DNA from: Nanobdellota archaeon
GTDB lineage: Archaea > Nanobdellota > Nanobdellia > Pacearchaeales > GW2011-AR1
Assembly: GCA_038046005.1 (NCBI GenBank)
Contig: JBBSXB010000001.1
Coordinates: 52,769 to 116,768, forward strand
DNA length: 64,000 nucleotides
Direction: 5' to 3'
Positions 6,252 through 26,691 of the stretch are shown in pieces (position 1 is the first letter of the stretch; each line of letters begins with the position of its first letter). The notes under the pieces are model-generated. The model was not told the origin of the DNA. It ran no database searches and saw only the letters and a program-made list of their open reading frames with translations. The position numbers were made by a program, and so were the translations under genes.

Positions 6252-6603
6252 ACAAGCGCTAGGAACATTTCCAGGATTTGATGAAGAGTTAGAAAGACTT
6301 AGAACCTTAGGACACGAAGCAATAATCTTGGGAAACAGAGAAGAAGTTCGTAGGATACTTAACGAAGATGTATATAATTTTTTATTCCAACAAGATCAAT
6401 ATCAAAGACAGCTTTATAGAACATTTAAAAACTTTGCCGAAGAGAATCCTGAACTAAAACCAATTGTAGGGGAATATTTATCAAAATTAGAACAAAGCAT
6501 CAGAAATAGGGCAGAAGCATTAAATTCTTGGAGTAATGATGTTAGGGGAAATCTAAAACTCTTTGAAGATTCAATAAAAGTAAATTCCGAGGAGGGAAAA
6601 TAA
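6244..6603 (+). CDS. Hypothetical protein (119 aa) inserted between P0 and P1
   Basis: Overlaps the P0 stop by 8 nt and the P1 start by 1 nt. Strong SD (GAGGAGG) 10 nt upstream. No recognisable family. Flanked by an 18-nt direct repeat. Confidence 0.5.
   Translation: MSKQALGTFPGFDEELERLRTLGHEAIILGNREEVRRILNEDVYNFLFQQDQYQRQLYRTFKNFAEENPELKPIVGEYLSKLEQSIRNRAEALNSWSNDVRGNLKLFEDSIKVNSEEGK
6578..6595 (+). repeat. Direct repeat copy 2 (AAGTAAATTCCGAGGAGG) at the 3' end of inserted ORF 6244..6603
   Basis: Exact 18-nt match to 6217..6234, 361 nt apart. Brackets the inserted ORF. Confidence 0.7.
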
Positions 6604-9898: not shown

Positions 9899-9997
9899 CG
9901 CCCCCGCCAGGAATCGAACCTGGAAGCCCAGAGGGCCTGGTTCTCTTGTCTAAATCTCAAACTCAAGACCAGTGCTCTACCATTGAGCGACGGAGGC
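9899..9997 (-). tRNA. tRNA-Ser (anticodon TGA) with 19-nt intron after position 37
   Basis: Sense strand reads GCCTCCG-TC-GCTC-AATGGTA-GAGC-A-CTGGT-CTTGAG[TTTGAGATTTAGACAAGAG]A-ACCAG, a long variable arm GCCCTCTGGGCTT, CCAGG-TTCGATT-CCTGG, CGGGGGC-G. Class II structure and G73 discriminator are consistent with Ser. Confidence 0.7.
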
Positions 9998-13104: not shown

Positions 13105-13812
13105 ATGAACTTCATAAAAAAGATATTTGATGGTAAAATTGATCAAAGTGTTCATCTTCAATTCCAGAAGTTTAGTAAAGGCGAGTTTAAGAGAAGAGCT
13201 TTAGTGAGAGTAAAAAATACCGGAGGAAAATTTAGCATTTCAACAAGCACAGAGTTTGCAAAAGAATTTATTAGAATATGTGCAGAAAAACTTGGGAACA
13301 ATAGAACTGGTATTACTGGAATAATTGTCTCAACCCTTGATCTTACCGGCCAACTAGAATTTAAAGATAAAAAGCAGTTTCAGGGCGTTAAAAAGTATAT
13401 TATAGACAACGAAATGTCTGGAAAAGAGATTATATCTTTATTAGAAAAGTTTCCAAAAGCTTTTTTTGCTTTAACTTTTAGCTTTGGGAATAATATTTTA
13501 AAAATAAAGCCGAAGCTTCCTAAATCTGGAAAACCTGGATCAAAAGGAGAAGATGAAATAAAACCAGATTTTTGCAAACTTGTCACAGATGATAAAGCTT
13601 TAGGGGAAAGTTTTGTTTTTGAAAGCTCCGGGTTTAAAGAAGCAGCCATAGCCCATGATTTTGTTATAACTGGCATAGTAATTTCGCCTGAATTGAAAAA
13701 GAGCAATGATTTTGCAAAAATTAGGGAAGAAGCGAAAAGAAAGGGCAAGATTGTAAGGAAAGGCAAAATTGATGGAAAAGAATTTATAAGTGAAAAAGAT
13801 TTTGAAGCTTAG
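13105..13812 (+). CDS. Hypothetical protein (235 aa)
   Basis: Two domains separated by a Lys/Pro/Gly-rich linker (KIKPKLPKSGKPGSKGEDE). No recognised family. Confidence 0.4.
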   Translation: MNFIKKIFDGKIDQSVHLQFQKFSKGEFKRRALVRVKNTGGKFSISTSTEFAKEFIRICAEKLGNNRTGITGIIVSTLDLTGQLEFKDKKQFQGVKKYIIDNEMSGKEIISLLEKFPKAFFALTFSFGNNILKIKPKLPKSGKPGSKGEDEIKPDFCKLVTDDKALGESFVFESSGFKEAAIAHDFVITGIVISPELKKSNDFAKIREEAKRKGKIVRKGKIDGKEFISEKDFEA

Positions 13813-14270
13813 TGCCCCGTTGGTTTTCTGGAACTACTACCTCTCCCATTACCTCTTTTGTGGCCGTTAGAGTAATCTATTCTCGTTGTTAATCCATTAG
13901 AACGCCCTTCTGTTTCTGAAATTATTCCATAATCGCAAAGAACTTCCTCTAACCTCTTAGGGGAAAAACCGAGAATTTTGGCCGCCATTTTTTTATTTTG
14001 GCTAACCAAACTATAAATTTTCTTAACTGTATCTTTCGGAGGTATTGAGAAACCTTTTCTGGTTGAATAATTATTTTCACTTCTTGCCAATCTAGCAAAA
14101 AAATCCTGAGGGATATATTCTTTATGTAAATGTTCATAAAGCCTGCTAGCTATCATAGGACTATTACCTGCAGCTAATAAAACAGCACGCATAGATGGTG
14201 AGTCGTATTTTGTTGAAACCATTAAAAGTCCCATGAAATTTAGTTTAAAAATGTTATCCCCCTTCATCAT
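13809..14270 (-). CDS. Hypothetical protein with probable HTH and Arg/Gly-rich C-terminal tail
   Basis: AAKILGFSPKRLEEVLCDYGI resembles a helix-turn-helix. C-terminus GHKRGNGRGSSSRKPTGH. True start uncertain (several in-frame Met). Confidence 0.3.
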   Translation of the reverse strand: MMKGDNIFKLNFMGLLMVSTKYDSPSMRAVLLAAGNSPMIASRLYEHLHKEYIPQDFFARLARSENNYSTRKGFSIPPKDTVKKIYSLVSQNKKMAAKILGFSPKRLEEVLCDYGIISETEGRSNGLTTRIDYSNGHKRGNGRGSSSRKPTGH

Positions 14271-16400: not shown

Positions 16401-17096
16401 ATGGGAAAAAGAATAATTGTTCAAGCAAGAGGACATGGAAGTAATAGTTATAGAGTTAGAAGAAACGCTTTCAAATATAGAATAAAATATCCTAAAAAGT
16501 TGGAAGGAGAAGGAGTTATAATAAAATTAGTAAATTCAACTGGTCACATGGCCCCATTGGCAAAAATTAAATCTAAGGATGAAATTTTTTTCATGCCGGC
16601 ATTTAAAGGAATGATCGAAAATCAAAGTATCAAATTTGGGGGAAATGAAGTTAAAATTGGAAATGTAATGACGCTGAGGAATATTCCCGTAAAAACACAA
16701 ATTTATAATATAGAATCAAGGCCTGGAGATGGGGGAGTTTTCATAAGAACAGCAGGAACATCGGCTGAAATCAGCAAAGTTGTTGGAGAAAATATTTTTG
16801 TTGTAATGCCTTCAAAAAAAGAACGTGTATTCCATGGAAATTGCAGAGCAACAATTGGATCAATCGCCGGTTCTGGAAGACTTGAAAAACCAATTGTAAA
16901 AGCTGGGAAGAATTTTTATATTCGAAAGTCAAGAAATAAATTGTGGCCTAGAACTTCTGCAGTCAAGATGAACGTCATAGATCATCCTTTCGGTTCTGGT
17001 AGAGGGAAAAGAATCAAAAGTAAGATTGCAAAGAGAAATGCCCCGCCTGGTGCAAAGGTTGGGTTAATAAGGCCTAGAAGAACAGGTAAGCCTTAA
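16401..17096 (+). CDS. rpl2: Ribosomal protein L2 (uL2)
   Basis: 231 aa. GRNAxGxxxxxHxGGG-like C-terminal region (KMNVIDHPFGSGRGKR). Confidence 0.9.
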   Translation: MGKRIIVQARGHGSNSYRVRRNAFKYRIKYPKKLEGEGVIIKLVNSTGHMAPLAKIKSKDEIFFMPAFKGMIENQSIKFGGNEVKIGNVMTLRNIPVKTQIYNIESRPGDGGVFIRTAGTSAEISKVVGENIFVVMPSKKERVFHGNCRATIGSIAGSGRLEKPIVKAGKNFYIRKSRNKLWPRTSAVKMNVIDHPFGSGRGKRIKSKIAKRNAPPGAKVGLIRPRRTGKP

Positions 17097-17103
17097 AATT
17101 AAA

Positions 17104-17487
17104 ATGAAAAATAAAGTAGAAAATAAAATCAAACGAATTGTATCAAGAAGAGACATAGCAACTTTAACAGAAGGAGGTATTGTTTCAGTAAAATTAAAAC
17201 ACTTTTATCCAAGTGTTAGCATTTATACAACAACAGAAGAAGGATTATTTATGGTTGCGGGGAATTACATGACAACTACAAAATTAATAGCCCCTTTAAG
17301 AAATAGTTTGTTCAATCCAGAAGGGAGAATAATGGAACTCGTCGGTTTTACTAGAAATATGGAGTTTGAAAATGGGGCTTTGATTTTATATGATAAGGCT
17401 ATAGGAAAAAAATGTTTGCTCCCAGAGAGTGGAACTCCTTACAATTATTATAAAGACAGATTATCAGTAGAGGGATTAATAAATTAA
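17104..17487 (+). CDS. Hypothetical protein (127 aa) inserted between L2 and S19
   Basis: Starts 8 nt after the L2 stop. S19 starts 2 nt after its stop. No recognisable family. Not a known ribosomal protein at this conserved junction. Confidence 0.5.
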   Translation: MKNKVENKIKRIVSRRDIATLTEGGIVSVKLKHFYPSVSIYTTTEEGLFMVAGNYMTTTKLIAPLRNSLFNPEGRIMELVGFTRNMEFENGALILYDKAIGKKCLLPESGTPYNYYKDRLSVEGLIN

Positions 17488-17488
17488 A

Positions 17489-17881
17489 ATGGACAAGAAA
17501 AAAGATTTCACATACAGGGGAAAAAATATTGAAGAATTAAAAAAGCTTGAAGTTAGAGAATTTGCAAAATATATTAAATCAAGAGCAAGAAGGGCTGTAT
17601 TGAGAAATTTCCAGAGTATTGAAAAATTCCTAATTCGAGCAAAAGAAAAAATTGAAAAAAATAAGCAGATTAAAACTCACTTAAGAGATTTAGTTATTGT
17701 TCCAGAGATGATTGGAATGAAAATTAATGTGTACAATGGCCATAGTTTTATTCCTGTGGAAATAAGTGGAGAAATGCTTGGCCATAGGATGGGTGAATTT
17801 GCGCTTACTAGAGGAAAAGTAAAGCATGGTAGTGCTGGAATAGGTGCCACAAAAGGAAGTAAACACAAAGCTAAAAAGTAA
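17489..17881 (+). CDS. rps19: Ribosomal protein S19 (uS19)
   Basis: 130 aa. THLRDLVIVPEMIG...YNGHSFIPVEI...GHRMGEFALTRGKVKHG. Confidence 0.9.
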   Translation: MDKKKDFTYRGKNIEELKKLEVREFAKYIKSRARRAVLRNFQSIEKFLIRAKEKIEKNKQIKTHLRDLVIVPEMIGMKINVYNGHSFIPVEISGEMLGHRMGEFALTRGKVKHGSAGIGATKGSKHKAKK

Positions 17882-17883
17882 AC

Positions 17884-18459
17884 ATGACAGAAAATAAAAA
17901 ACAGACTAAAGAAGAAAAAGTAGATAACAAAGAATTAGAAAGCACCCCTAGTGAAAAACCCATCTCTAATGAAAGTGAAGTTAAGGAAGAGAAAAAAGAG
18001 ATTAAAGAAAAACCAAAAAAGGAAATAAAAAAGAAAACAAGTGCCGTTGTTAATGGAATTAATCTTCACATGTCAACAAAACAAGCCGCTGCAATTTGCA
18101 GGTTCATTAAATGGAAAGAAATAAAAAAAGCTGTTCAAGAATTAAAGGAAGTTTCTCAATTGAGGAGGGCGATACCTATGAAAGGCGAAATACCACATAG
18201 GAAAAATATTGGTCCTGGAAGATATCCTCAAAAAGCGTCTAAGGCGTTTGTTGAATTGTTAAACACTCTTTCGGCAAACGCTGAAACTAATGGATTAGAA
18301 AATCCAATAATAGCTAAAGCTGTTGCTAACATTGCATCAAGGCCTTATGGGAAATTTGGGGCTGTTAGGAAAAAAAGAAGTCATGTTGAAATAACTGCTA
18401 TTGATAAAAAAGAAAAAACACATTCAGACAAAAAAGCAATGGAGGGTAAAAAAAACTGA
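17884..18459 (+). CDS. rpl22: Ribosomal protein L22 (uL22) with ~55-aa Lys/Glu-rich N-terminal extension
   Basis: 191 aa. uL22 core from about residue 56. Low-complexity K/E-rich N-terminus. Confidence 0.85.
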   Translation: MTENKKQTKEEKVDNKELESTPSEKPISNESEVKEEKKEIKEKPKKEIKKKTSAVVNGINLHMSTKQAAAICRFIKWKEIKKAVQELKEVSQLRRAIPMKGEIPHRKNIGPGRYPQKASKAFVELLNTLSANAETNGLENPIIAKAVANIASRPYGKFGAVRKKRSHVEITAIDKKEKTHSDKKAMEGKKN

Positions 18460-19388: not shown

Positions 19389-19685
19389 ATGGAAATATGT
19401 CCAAAGTGTGGATTACCCAAAGAAGCCTGTGTATGTGAACAGATAGCAAAAATTTCACAAAAGATAACTGTAACGACAGACAAGAAAACATACGGAAAGA
19501 TAGTAACTGTCGTCACAGGGTTCGGCGATGGAGTGGATGTGAAAAAAACCGCAAAAGCTCTAAAAAACGAACTGGCTTGTGGAGGCACCTACAAAGATCG
19601 TATGATCGAGCTTCAAGGAGATCATACCAAAAGAATAAAAGGTGTCTTGGTCAAGTTGGGTTTTGATGAAGAATCCATAAATTAG
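19389..19685 (+). CDS. sui1: Translation initiation factor 1 (aSUI1/eIF1) with N-terminal zinc ribbon
   Basis: 98 aa. CPKCG...CVC followed by the SUI1 domain (KITVTTDKKTYGKIVTVVTGF...LACGGT). Confidence 0.85.
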   Translation: MEICPKCGLPKEACVCEQIAKISQKITVTTDKKTYGKIVTVVTGFGDGVDVKKTAKALKNELACGGTYKDRMIELQGDHTKRIKGVLVKLGFDEESIN

Positions 19686-19698
19686 AAATACGCGAAAA

Positions 19699-20091
19699 AT
19701 GACAAAGAAGGAAACCAAAGTAAAAGAAGAAGGAATGCTAAAAATAGCTGGTGCTTTATGCAGTGATAGGAACTGCCATGTCCATGGCGGATTAAAGACA
19801 AGAGGAAGAATCTTTGATGGATTGGTCATAAAAAAATTCCCGAAAAGAGTCGCAATAGAATTTGACAGGATGACATATGTAAAAAAATATGAAAGGTATA
19901 AAAAATCAAACACAAAGATTCATGCCAGGCTTCCTGACTGCATGAGTGACAAAATCAATGTTGGAGACTACATTAGGGTGCAGGAATGCAGACCTTTAAG
20001 TAAGATAATACACTTCGCGGTTTTAAACAAAATCAAAAATAAAGAAGAAGCAACAAAGATTTTGAACAAACAGGAGACTAACTTAAAATGA
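19699..20091 (+). CDS. rps17: Ribosomal protein S17 (uS17)
   Basis: 130 aa. CSDRNCHVHGGLKTRGRIF...VGDYIRVQECRPLSK. Confidence 0.85.
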   Translation: MTKKETKVKEEGMLKIAGALCSDRNCHVHGGLKTRGRIFDGLVIKKFPKRVAIEFDRMTYVKKYERYKKSNTKIHARLPDCMSDKINVGDYIRVQECRPLSKIIHFAVLNKIKNKEEATKILNKQETNLK

Positions 20092-20432
20092 AAAGAGCAA
20101 TTATTTTAACAGGAAGAGAAGGAAACTCTGAGTTTTACAGTTTATTATTAGAACTAAATTCTAATGCTGTTTTTTACACTCATCGGTTTAAAGAAGGAAA
20201 TCATCAAGCTTTTTTAGACGAAGTTGCTTCAGATTTTGCAGAAAAAATTGCTGAATATAATAAATCTGGAATTTTAGAAGTAGGAAGATTAAATGGTTAT
20301 AATATAATAGATGGAAAACCTATTGAGGTAGATAAAATAGACACAACTTCGTTTGAAAGAAGATTAGAAAAATTGTTAAAAAATTTAAAGGGAGTAACTG
20401 CAGTAGAAAATATTGCAAGTTTAAACAACTAA
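20088..20432 (+). CDS. Hypothetical protein (114 aa) inserted between S17 and L14
   Basis: ATGA overlap with the S17 stop. L14 starts 2 nt after. AGGAG 14 nt upstream. No recognisable family. Confidence 0.5.
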   Translation: MKRAIILTGREGNSEFYSLLLELNSNAVFYTHRFKEGNHQAFLDEVASDFAEKIAEYNKSGILEVGRLNGYNIIDGKPIEVDKIDTTSFERRLEKLLKNLKGVTAVENIASLNN

Positions 20433-24413: not shown

Positions 24414-24887
24414 ATGGAAAAAGAAAAAGCACTAAAAGATTTTGAAGAAGGGTTCGGCAGATTAAAGCAAGAACTTAAGTTTAAAACTAATTTGGATGAA
24501 ATTGATGAAATTTTCTTTATTAGAGATGTTATACTTCAAGATGGATTTGTAAGCAAAAATTTATTCAGGCAAATGGCCTACAGGATTGCAGAATTTTATC
24601 TAAGATGGAATGATTATTTGCATGGTTTAATAATGCCAAACCCTCAAAATATTTTAAGTTTAAGCGAAAGTAAGATTTTTAACCAAGAAGAGAAAAAGAT
24701 TATAACAAACATGATAAAAAAGATAATGGAATTGAACAGCAAGAATATTCTTATAACTTTGACTAGGGATAAAGCAGAAGAAGGGAAGTTTATTGATTAC
24801 AGTGTTAATATGTGGAAAAGTGAATTACAACCAGAGATAATAAAATTAATTAAAAAAATAAATAAAGAATGGGGAGAAAACAAATGA
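24414..24887 (+). CDS. Hypothetical protein (157 aa) inserted between L19e and L18
   Basis: Starts 1 nt after the L19e stop (AGGAG 7 nt upstream). Its stop overlaps the L18 ATG (ATGA). No recognisable family. Confidence 0.5.
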   Translation: MEKEKALKDFEEGFGRLKQELKFKTNLDEIDEIFFIRDVILQDGFVSKNLFRQMAYRIAEFYLRWNDYLHGLIMPNPQNILSLSESKIFNQEEKKIITNMIKKIMELNSKNILITLTRDKAEEGKFIDYSVNMWKSELQPEIIKLIKKINKEWGENK

Positions 24888-25370: not shown

Positions 25371-26219
25371 ATGAAAAAAACAGATAAAAAACAAGTATTT
25401 GAAGATGTAAAGAAAACTGTAGAGGCCTATGGGGCATTTTCAGAAGAAGAAGCAATCAAGAGTGCAAAAAATCCAGAGGAGATTACTGTAAAGTTGATTG
25501 ATGAAGACATCAAGGATAAAAAAGTTGAAGAGATAATTGAAGAGACAGAAAAAAAGGTTATTGGAGAAAAGATTAGAGAAGAAATTGCTGGATGGAGACC
25601 AAAGACAAAGCTTGGAAGAGAAACAAGAGAGGGAAAAATAAAAAATATAGACGAAATATTAGAAAATAATAGAAAAATATTGGAAGAAGAAATTGTTGAT
25701 TATCTGCTTGGTTTAAAGTCCGACTTAATTTCTATTGGACAATCAAAGGGAAAGTTTGGTGGAGGAAAAAGAAGGGCTTGGAGACAAACACAAAGAAAGA
25801 CCGAAGAAGGTAATGTGCCAACTTTTTCCACAATGGCTGTTGTTGGAGACGAAAATGGGCATGTTGGAGTTGGAATGGGGGAAGCAAAAGAAACTCTTCC
25901 TGCAAGAGACAAAGCAATAAGAAAGGCTAAGCTTAACATCATGAAAGTCGGGAGAGGGTGCTCGGCATTTGACTGTAATTGCAACGAACTCCACACTATT
26001 CCATTTAAAGTTGAGGGAAAAACTGGAAGTGTGAGAATTATTTTAATTCCGGCTCCACAGGGCACTGGTTTAGTTGTGGGAAAAGAAATAAAGAAGGTTT
26101 TAAAATTAGCTGGAATTAAAGACGTTTATAGCAAAACTTTTGGACAAAAAAGAACCTCATTCAATCTTGTCAAAGCGTGTGTTAATGCTCTTGAAAAAAC
26201 AATGGTGAAGAAAAAATGA
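25371..26219 (+). CDS. rps5: Ribosomal protein S5 (uS5) with ~80-aa acidic N-terminal extension
   Basis: 282 aa. dsRBD-like and uS5 C-domain (GKTGSVRIILIPAPQGTGLV). Glu/Lys-rich N-terminus. Confidence 0.9.
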   Translation: MKKTDKKQVFEDVKKTVEAYGAFSEEEAIKSAKNPEEITVKLIDEDIKDKKVEEIIEETEKKVIGEKIREEIAGWRPKTKLGRETREGKIKNIDEILENNRKILEEEIVDYLLGLKSDLISIGQSKGKFGGGKRRAWRQTQRKTEEGNVPTFSTMAVVGDENGHVGVGMGEAKETLPARDKAIRKAKLNIMKVGRGCSAFDCNCNELHTIPFKVEGKTGSVRIILIPAPQGTGLVVGKEIKKVLKLAGIKDVYSKTFGQKRTSFNLVKACVNALEKTMVKKK

Positions 26220-26268
26220 AAGCAAATCAAAGATTTTCATTCATTCGAAATTATAGGAGATTATTCAA

Positions 26269-26691
26269 ATGATTGTAGCAATAAGAATCAAAGGAGATGT
26301 AAACATAGACCCTAGAATAAAGGAAACACTTTACAGAATCAGGCTTAGAAGAAAATATTCTTGTGTGGTCATTAAACCAGATCCCGTTAGCCTAGGGGTC
26401 ATAAAAAAACTAACAAGTTTTATTGCATATGGAGAGATAAATGAAGAAACTTTGCACAATTTAATTGAAAAGCGAGGAAAACCGATTGACAAAAAAAAGA
26501 AAATAGATGTAAAAAAAGTTGTTGAAGAAATTAAAAAAGGGAAAAAATTTGAAGATTTAAACTTGAAACCATTTTTCAGGCTTCATCCTCCAAGAGGAGG
26601 AATAGACAGTGGAAAACACTTTGGAGTCAAAAAAGGAGTTTTGGGAAATAACAGAGAACATATTAATAAATTAATAGAGAGAATGTTGTAA
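26269..26691 (+). CDS. rpl30: Ribosomal protein L30 (uL30)
   Basis: 140 aa. Canonical position after S5. Confidence 0.85.
   Translation: MIVAIRIKGDVNIDPRIKETLYRIRLRRKYSCVVIKPDPVSLGVIKKLTSFIAYGEINEETLHNLIEKRGKPIDKKKKIDVKKVVEEIKKGKKFEDLNLKPFFRLHPPRGGIDSGKHFGVKKGVLGNNREHINKLIERML

Follow-up and report, generated by a model that had tools for sequence, protein, structure and literature searches.

An undescribed gene between the L2 and S19 genes of a Nanobdellota archaeon, and interrupted junctions in related ribosomal protein operons

Introduction

The ribosomal protein operon is treated as the most stable synteny of prokaryotes, and the binning and phylogenomics of uncultured archaea are built on it. 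A gene wedged between two of its members therefore raises the question of whether it encodes a ribosomal protein peculiar to its lineage or something else altogether. Such a case occurs in a stretch of 64,000 nucleotides (nt) from a Nanobdellota archaeon of the order Pacearchaeales (contig JBBSXB010000001.1), here called the window, in which an open reading frame (ORF) of 127 amino acids, ORF127, lies between the genes for ribosomal proteins L2 and S19. A reading made without database searches, which we shall call the sequence-only reading, had proposed this ORF as a candidate for a lineage-specific ribosomal or ribosome-associated protein. The best explanation that we can offer is a different one, namely that ORF127 represents a class of accessory genes wedged singly into the stop/start junctions of the S10-like operon in Pacearchaeota- and Woesearchaeota-type members of the DPANN archaea (Diapherotrites, Parvarchaeota, Aenigmarchaeota, Nanoarchaeota and Nanohaloarchaeota). 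A ribosomal role of ORF127 is not supported.

The gene and its immediate neighbours

The three genes at the centre of the question are the following.

16401 to 17096, + strand: ribosomal protein L2 gene, complete, the upstream neighbour (Pfam Ribosomal_L2_C, expect value (E) 7e-36; aligned with its orthologues over residues 1–231)
17104 to 17487, + strand: ORF127, from ATG to TAA, 127 amino acids; its NCBI record is 'MAG: hypothetical protein AABW51_00535 [Nanoarchaeota archaeon]' (MAG, metagenome-assembled genome)
17489 to 17881, + strand: ribosomal protein S19 gene, complete, the downstream neighbour (Pfam Ribosomal_S19, E 7e-26; aligned with its orthologues over residues 1–130)

They belong to an archaeal S10/spc-type cluster of ribosomal protein genes, which runs on the + strand of the window in the order L3, L4, L23, L2, ORF127, S19, L22, S3, L29, SUI1, S17, ORF114, L14, L24, S4e, L5 and onward. 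The position, strand and length that the sequence-only reading had assigned to the ORF are exact. The tight packing on which it had remarked is also real, each of the two spacers being one base shorter than it had given (7 nt rather than 8 from the L2 stop, and 1 nt rather than 2 to the S19 start). It had further described the ORF as a co-translated insert; here, co-transcription with L2 and S19 is a must and co-translation is probable, the insert being a genuine, tightly packed and previously undescribed gene. Since L2 and S19 each align end to end with their orthologues, ORF127 is not a split piece of either of them.

ORF127 is a real gene that encodes a protein. At positions 17104–17487 it is the only ORF of 40 amino acids or more on either strand. 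At the local base composition, the probability that 127 codons remain open by chance is approximately 5e-6, and none of 200,000 shuffled sequences did so. The codon-usage log-odds are +0.23 and are positive in the annotated frame only, the neighbouring ribosomal protein genes having values of 0.15–0.41; the G+C content is typical of the operon, both overall (0.307) and at third codon positions (GC3, 0.219). The encoded protein is moderately basic, with an isoelectric point (pI) of 9.35. A scan of the interval against Rfam gave no RNA family.

A family of junction inserts

Conventional searches with ORF127 return nothing but the query. Pfam and NCBIfam contain no family that matches at E up to 1, a profile search of PDB sequences gave no match, and scans of GTDB genomes and viral contigs gave no relative. 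In a word-indexed search of 5.8 billion protein clusters, ORF127 recovered only itself (P0001), as it did in a full phmmer search of 1.84 billion cluster representatives; no paralogue was found within the window.

Relatives come into view within the same genomic context. Loci related to the window were fetched via S19, giving 12 archaeal loci from GTDB genomes and 80 from metagenomes, with one bacterial match set aside; they are cited below by an L and three digits, which distinguishes them from ribosomal proteins. In each locus the ribosomal protein genes were placed by tblastn. All distinct ORFs of at least 50 amino acids, on both strands of the window and of the related loci, made up a local database of 2,323 sequences, which is thus drawn from ribosomal protein operon loci only. 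When this database was queried with ORF127, the top two non-self matches were inserts in other operons, one in L014 at L2–S19 (E 0.026) and one in L016 at L22–S3 (E 0.08). A profile made from three L2–S19 inserts (those of L013, L014 and L027), with ORF127 excluded, matched ORF127 at E 0.007, and iteration converged on nine sequences, which form alignment A3. Searched against the set of 5.8 billion, A3 recovered six of its nine queries together with two new members, P0008 and P0009, both of which are encoded immediately upstream of L29, as is the relative in L032. A PADLOC search gave no match for ORF127 or for any of the nine members of A3.

Membership of ORF127 was assessed with profiles from which it had been left out. 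Profiles of the other eight and of the other ten members gave it 20.1 and 20.9 bits, respectively (E 7.9e-5 and 3.9e-5 among the 2,323 ORFs), and it was the best non-member match of both, the next one lying at E 0.03–0.04. The real score was reached by none of 5,000 shuffles of ORF127, of which the highest obtained 13.2 bits, and the reversed sequence obtained 3.0 bits. The alignment of ORF127 with the family hidden Markov model (HMM) is collinear over residues 1–114, with a single insertion of 18 residues in ORF127, and the hhalign probability is 69.5%. Taken at the level of sequence profiles, ORF127 is probably, on support that is moderate and not strong, a distant member of a family that is undescribed in the libraries searched. 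The members are distributed over four junctions.

L23–L2: L007/L021, L011 and L071
L2–S19: the window, L013, L014 and L027
L22–S3: L016
S3–L29: L032/L093, P0008 and P0009

The proteins are 82–127 amino acids long, and each is encoded by a single tightly packed gene between ribosomal protein genes; ORF127 conforms in both respects. Three shared features were recognised by eye in several inserts: an N-terminal motif, KIQxLExxEDLxxLxxGDxV, a beta-rich centre that ends in an invariant glycine (xNGxLI), and a C-terminal helix, YxxxxxxLxExG[LI], which often ends in ExG[LI]. The only invariant columns of the alignment are Leu21 and Gly91, and it shows neither a conserved pattern of Cys and His nor a polar residue of catalytic type. 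Two further candidates for membership were considered. ORF114, an orphan ORF farther along the operon of the window, was rejected (hhalign probability 0.3%), and a group of inserts at S17–L14 (L074 and L079) reaches only 19–26% and is left unproven.

Several resemblances outside the operon were likewise followed and given up. The N-terminal motif recalls a LexA winged helix, at an E of 0.8 that is not significant. Among the PHROGs, the family yields only weak matches of single members, phrog_32681 being matched by ORF127 alone (E 0.004), and tblastn with ORF127 reaches the jumbo phages 121Q and PBECO4 at E 0.4; this link to phages was dropped because the family profile has no match to 121Q gp381, the likely representative of phrog_32681, which scores -0.7 bits. 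No nuclease family of Pfam or PHROGs was detected in any member when GIY-YIG, HNH, LAGLIDADG and PD-(D/E)xK were considered. For the RNase P subunit Rpp29/Pop4 (Pfam, UPF0086), neither ORF127 nor ORF114 gave a Pfam or NCBIfam match, and blastp of ORF127 against the Rpp29-like ORF of the outgroup L015 gave E 0.32 in a set of 23 sequences.

It might be supposed that ORF127 is a young or decaying frame without function, either a remnant or a de novo ORF, tolerated since its coupling to S19 is preserved. The lack of any homologue at ordinary thresholds among 1.84 billion representatives and 5.8 billion clusters would be expected of such a frame, as would structure predictions of low confidence, which is what ORF127 gives; the gene is also dispensable in close relatives, and two more orphan ORFs, ORF114 and ORF157, are found in the same operon. 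This explanation is nevertheless highly improbable. An open frame of this length is very improbable by chance, its codon usage is frame-specific and host-like, the profile match to the family is collinear and full-length, and one subfamily has a ratio of nonsynonymous to synonymous substitution (dN/dS) below 1. The same ORF is, moreover, present on five contigs from other sequencing runs, independent assemblies whose identity to the window is 100% across stretches of as much as 16 kb, although a single population was sampled. Distant relatives exist, the codon usage is ordinary and no known mobile or unrelated gene was matched, which disposes of three doubts that the sequence-only reading had raised about its own proposal.

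Interrupted junctions in related operons

The initial interest of ORF127 lay in the belief that the L2–S19 junction is invariant across archaea. Within the clade examined here, this is not so. Of the 82 related loci in which both genes are present, 12 show more than 200 nt between L2 and S19, a gap occupied by a closely packed ORF of 72–298 amino acids on the + strand, and three of these 12 inserts belong to the ORF127 family. Interruption is not peculiar to this junction. Upstream of it, L3–L4 is interrupted in 8 of 42 loci, L4–L23 in 9 of 59 and L23–L2 in 11 of 65; downstream, the figures are 4/80 for S19–L22, 5/66 for L22–S3, 5/48 for S3–L29, 9/43 for S17–L14 and 10/37 for L14–L24. The only junctions that are nearly always uninterrupted are L29–SUI1 (0/46) and SUI1–S17 (1/46), the others from L3 to L24 being interrupted in 5–27% of loci. 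Most of the inserts are small proteins without a family, and the median pI of 78 insert ORFs is 6.1. A full-text search of the literature found no account of variable inserts in DPANN ribosomal protein operons.

Some inserts encode recognisable enzymes. In a subset of the relatives, a gene for a DEDD exonuclease of the RNase T/DnaQ type (197–218 amino acids; Pfam RNase_T, E 2e-12) lies between L4 and L23. It is absent from the window, in which L4 and L23 overlap. The positions of this and other such cargo are as follows.

RNase_T gene, L4–L23: L007 1225–1845, L009 2137–2730, L010 987–1643 and L016 2381–3037, and also L029, L041, L071, L075 and L096
Metallophos gene, L2–S19: L071 4088–4984
HAD gene, L14–L24: L041 7991–8656
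Peptidase_M23 gene, L14–L24: L085 3986–4558

The comparison that bears most directly on ORF127 is with the closest relatives of the window, L006, L019 and L020. Their L2 proteins are 91–92%, their S19 proteins 93% and their other ribosomal proteins 81–98% identical to those of the window. In all three, the stop codon of L2 leads directly to the start codon of S19 (TAA-A-ATG), and no trace of ORF127 is present. When the loci are ordered by a neighbour-joining tree of L2 plus S19, those that carry a member of the family are scattered and mostly have neighbours free of inserts.

Anatomy of the L2–S19 junction

Three short features accompany ORF127 at its ends.

17096 to 17106, + strand: left copy of an 11-nt direct repeat, AAATTAAAATG, running from the final base of the L2 stop through the 7-nt spacer to the end of the ORF127 start codon
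17481 to 17491, + strand: right copy of the repeat, holding the ORF127 stop, one A and the S19 start codon, which together are the usual TAAAATG coupling junction of the operon
17470 to 17474, + strand: GAGGG, a motif that resembles a Shine-Dalgarno sequence and is presumed to act as one, among the last codons of ORF127 (..EG..) and separated by 14 nt from the ATG of S19

The 11-nt repeat has three copies in the 64 kb of the window, with 0.93 expected, and two of the three flank ORF127 exactly. The corresponding empty site in L006, L019 and L020 reads CCTTAAAATGG, or, set out by codons, CCT-TAA-A-ATG-G. An arrangement of this kind would be in keeping with recombination at this sequence, whether it inserted the gene or excised it, and it is suggestive only, because no stop/start junction of the operon is commoner than TAAAATG, which is found at 10 or more junctions in the window. 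The idea that TAAAATG marks a specific cassette boundary was rejected, in that insert ends are not enriched in it relative to ordinary ribosomal protein gene starts: it is present at 20 of 70 left boundaries, 21 of 70 right boundaries and both boundaries in 6 of 70, compared with 35 of 69 L2 starts in the relatives.

The 3' ends of 11 family genes were compared, and in most of them GAGG or GGAGG stands as far ahead of the next start codon as the GAGGG of ORF127 does. For this reason, part of the conservation of the C-terminal ExG[LI] may reflect a requirement of the downstream gene for a Shine-Dalgarno sequence at the nucleotide level.

It is at this point that a self-mobile cassette has to be considered, that is, a single gene that would move between junctions and genomes by means of TAAAATG and its flanks, as a selfish passenger of an essential and highly expressed operon. 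One family does occur at four junctions in different lineages, the empty sites are clean, AAATTAAAATG flanks ORF127 exactly, and TAAAATG is the most frequent junction of the operon. Set against this, no recombinase, nuclease or other mobility function was detected in the 127-residue product or adjoining it, the family has no invariant residues other than a leucine and a glycine, translational coupling accounts for TAAAATG, which shows no excess at the boundaries of inserts, and no relative was found in viral contigs or phage records. We consider self-mobility very unlikely. There is a likeness to phage morons and to free-standing homing-endonuclease genes: ORF127, as they do, forms a single precise insert with intact neighbours, a patchy distribution, fast evolution and clean empty sites, and it differs from them in residing in a cellular DPANN ribosomal protein operon and in having no detectable nuclease motif or family; a promoter or terminator of its own was not evident, no search aimed at one having been made.

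A ribosomal or ribosome-associated protein?

The family as a whole has few of the properties of a ribosomal protein. Nine of 11 members are acidic (pI 4.9–6.3), the exceptions being ORF127 and P0008 (pI 9.34). The S3–L29 subfamily, with pairwise dN/dS values of 0.40–0.55, is under relaxed purifying selection. Between L099 and L100, dN is 0.256 for the insert and 0.047 for the adjacent L29, a difference of approximately fivefold, and the amino acid identities are 57% and 90%, respectively; the gene of this subfamily is thus constrained, yet evolves about five times faster than its ribosomal protein neighbour. Comparison of the family profile by hhalign with 20 ribosomal proteins of the cluster and SUI1 gave probabilities of 3% or less, and a search of the nine A3 members against Pfam gave nothing relevant. 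Origin as a duplicate of a KOW-containing or other ribosomal protein was examined in view of sub-threshold HMM matches to S4e and L24 (E 0.16–1.4), and was rejected when these failed in hhalign (L24 0.5%, S4e 0.4%).

Were the product nevertheless a lineage-specific ribosomal or ribosome-associated protein, it would bind the ribosome or a neighbouring ribosomal protein, perhaps to escort or chaperone a basic ribosomal protein or to modulate translation, and its gene would be kept in the operon for the sake of stoichiometric co-expression. The position in the operon and the tight translational coupling favour this, as do the location of all detected members between ribosomal protein genes in the stretch from L23 to L29, the moderately basic character of ORF127 itself and the purifying selection on one subfamily. 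By analogy with eukaryotes, which have dedicated ribosomal protein chaperones, even the acidity of most members might suit the escort of basic ribosomal proteins. We regard this explanation as unlikely. The closest relatives lack the gene and have a clean junction; the family occurs in a minority of related genomes and changes junction; its dN is approximately five times that of L29; its charge is not conserved; its profile is related to none of the ribosomal proteins tested; and unrelated enzymes occupy the same junctions.

Consideration of the two parts of the original proposal gives a divided answer. The statement that ORF127 resembles no ribosomal protein holds, both for single-sequence searches of Pfam and NCBIfam and for the family profile against 21 proteins of the cluster. 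The candidacy for a lineage-specific ribosomal protein is not supported: absence from the sister lineages, the shifts of junction, the acidity of most members, the high dN and the enzymes found at the same sites indicate a dispensable accessory gene rather than a lineage-defining ribosomal protein. A loose association of the product with the ribosome would remain compatible with what can be established in silico.

ORF127 can also be compared with known residents of such operons. SUI1/aIF1, the RNase P subunit Rpp29, SecY and adenylate kinase are non-ribosomal residents of archaeal ribosomal protein operons whose position is conserved across archaea and which belong to well-defined families. 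One of them is present in the operon of the window.

19389 to 19685, + strand: SUI1 (Pfam SUI1, E 8e-20)

Like the genes of these proteins, ORF127 is a non-ribosomal gene packed closely among ribosomal protein genes of its own strand, with which it is presumably co-transcribed; it differs from them in its absence from the closest relatives, in the shifts of its family from junction to junction and in having no Pfam or NCBIfam model. A second comparison is with aL45–aL47 and aS21, which are reportedly lineage-specific archaeal ribosomal proteins recognised by ribosome proteomics and cryo-electron microscopy, small, restricted to a narrow archaeal group, conserved within their lineages and found in purified ribosomes. 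ORF127 is similarly small and without homologues outside a narrow archaeal group, a class among which an unrecognised ribosomal protein might be concealed. Unlike them, it is missing from genomes whose ribosomal proteins are approximately 90% identical, and most members of its family are acidic. Finally, ORF127 shares with the ORFans of DPANN archaea and of bacteria of the candidate phyla radiation (CPR) its small size, an AT-rich composition like that of its host and the lack of homologues in standard searches, and is distinguished from a generic ORFan by the context-guided profiles that tie it to a family recurring at ribosomal protein operon junctions.

The accessory-gene interpretation

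On balance, we lean towards ORF127 being a dispensable accessory hitch-hiker, comparable to a phage moron, for which the operon serves as a site of strong constitutive expression, and not a part of the ribosome. This interpretation is favoured because the distribution of the family is patchy, its evolution fast and its charge variable, and because a mixture of other genes is found at the same junctions. Transcription of ORF127 would start at the promoter of the operon, and its translation would follow by termination and reinitiation after L2, across the 7-nt spacer, before being handed over to S19 through TAA-A-ATG. The expression of S19 would be left undisturbed, its Shine-Dalgarno-like GAGGG being supplied by the 3' end of ORF127. 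Recombination at a short AT-rich stop/start sequence would either have brought the gene into the lineage of the window or have removed it precisely from the sister lineage. The product of the gene may be a binding protein, small, soluble and without enzymatic activity, that reaches amounts like those of ribosomal proteins, and the gene a passenger that would take advantage of a strong and constitutive operon where the genome has little capacity for regulation.

A number of observations weigh against this interpretation or limit it. The lineage of the window lies on a long branch, with approximately 92% identity to its three sisters and 73% or less to all other loci, so that gain in this lineage and loss in the sister lineage are indistinguishable. 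The five contigs that carry the same ORF are fully identical to the window and therefore sample one population, with no polymorphism that could be used to measure selection on ORF127. The membership of ORF127 in the family is significant only because the search space was small and defined by genomic context; a score of approximately 21 bits would lack significance in a search of 5.8 billion proteins. Because the local database consists of ribosomal protein operon loci, the link between family and operon, and hence the hitch-hiker interpretation, could be a sampling artefact in either direction. The confinement of all detected members to the stretch between L23 and L29, in a sample made up of such loci, would also fit a translation-related role.

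A bolder proposal would make the S10-like operon of Pacearchaeota- and Woesearchaeota-type DPANN archaea a cassette platform, in which small genes, those of the ORF127 family among them, would time and again be inserted into, moved between and precisely excised from stop/start junctions through the shared AT-rich coupling sequence, possibly with the involvement of the 55-nt structured spacers of the relatives (described below). On that view, the family would represent a new kind of mobile gene that parasitises operons, or else a set of variable accessory translation factors that customise symbiont ribosomes. We think this distinctly doubtful as an account of the family, and for the present prefer to regard ORF127 as an accessory passenger.

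Other features of the operon and the window

Two further unassigned ORFs lie within the operon, and several other features of the window deserve mention.

20088 to 20432, + strand: ORF114, a second orphan insert, between S17 and L14 (pI 5.7, GC3 0.12, strong frame-specific codon signal), overlapping the S17 stop (ATGA)
24414 to 24887, + strand: ORF157, a third unassigned ORF, between L19e and L18, with no Pfam match
13105 to 13812, + strand: gene for a 235-residue protein upstream of L3, from which it is separated by an opposite-strand ORF (13809–14270)
17884 to 18459, + strand: L22 gene, with an N-terminal extension rich in lysine and glutamate
19685 to 19699: SUI1–S17 junction, a 13-nt spacer without a gene
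26216 to 26271: S5–L30 spacer, ATGAAAGCAAATCAAAGATTTTCATTCATTCGAAATTATAGGAGATTATTCAAATG
9899 to 9997, − strand: 99-nt tRNA reported by Rfam (48.7 bits)

ORF114 has no Pfam or NCBIfam match and no homologue in the local set; L006 lacks it and has a spacer of approximately 55 nt at its S17–L14 junction. The fetched loci, only a few of which reach as far as ORF157, contain no homologue of it. The 235-residue protein is conserved at the head of the operon, with matches at E 1e-82 to 1e-133 in those relatives that extend to it, and belongs to no Pfam or NCBIfam family. In L22, the extension of approximately 55 residues precedes the Pfam L22 domain (residues 60–171); relatives align only from about residue 50, and the extension is thus variable in the clade. 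The SUI1–S17 junction, which holds an insert in one of 46 loci of the clade, is where the RNase P subunit Rpp29 is usually encoded, and two distant outgroups have an ORF there (L015 5499–5822 and L017 3858–4106) that is Rpp29-like by eye only. The tRNA at 9899–9997 is not reported by ARAGORN; it may contain an intron or depart in some other way from a typical archaeal tRNA.

Many ribosomal protein junctions of the relatives carry a conserved, structured intergenic element of 53–56 nt (alignment A5, model R1), which begins ATGACAGAA and ends in the ATG of the next gene. It contains two hairpins, with a Shine-Dalgarno-like GGAG or GGGG in or beside the loop of the second. According to RNAalifold, seven of the 12 base pairs have compensatory double changes and almost none is broken, and no match was found in Rfam. 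A covariance model identifies 44 copies in 491 kb of related loci, with up to five in one locus and a few variants of approximately 100 nt; in the window there is no convincing copy. Examples are the following.

L012: 3918–3973
L095: 4927–4982, 5388–5443 and 6131–6183
L023: 4008–4063
L032: 5991–6043 and 7039–7091
L093: 5961–6013 and 8301–8353, with others elsewhere

The suggestion that L012 contains a decayed copy of the insert of L013 was withdrawn, the 73-nt spacer of L012 being a copy of this widespread 55-nt structured element. A second type of spacer is represented by ATGAAAGCAAATCAAAGATTTTCATTCATTCGAAATTATAGGAGATTATTCAAATG in the window, which closely resembles the S17–L14 spacer of L006 (about 6517–6572). 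It looks like another repeated module, composed of a mini-ORF and GGAG and occupying different junctions in different genomes; folding of single sequences gave no convincing structure for it.

Significance

It is the leakiness of a supposedly invariant operon in these archaea, more than ORF127 itself, that is the surprise. In the DPANN clade examined, most junctions of the operon are interrupted in 5–27% of related operons. The inserts are small, fast-evolving genes that are missed by standard homology searches, and at least one family of them recurs at four junctions. For annotation, this means that such ORFs are real genes, and that position alone provides no ground for naming them as novel ribosomal proteins. 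Genome-reduced symbionts may use their strongest constitutive operon for the expression of a changing set of accessory proteins, and, if any of the insert proteins bind the ribosome, they would be tractable candidates for lineage-variable translation factors.

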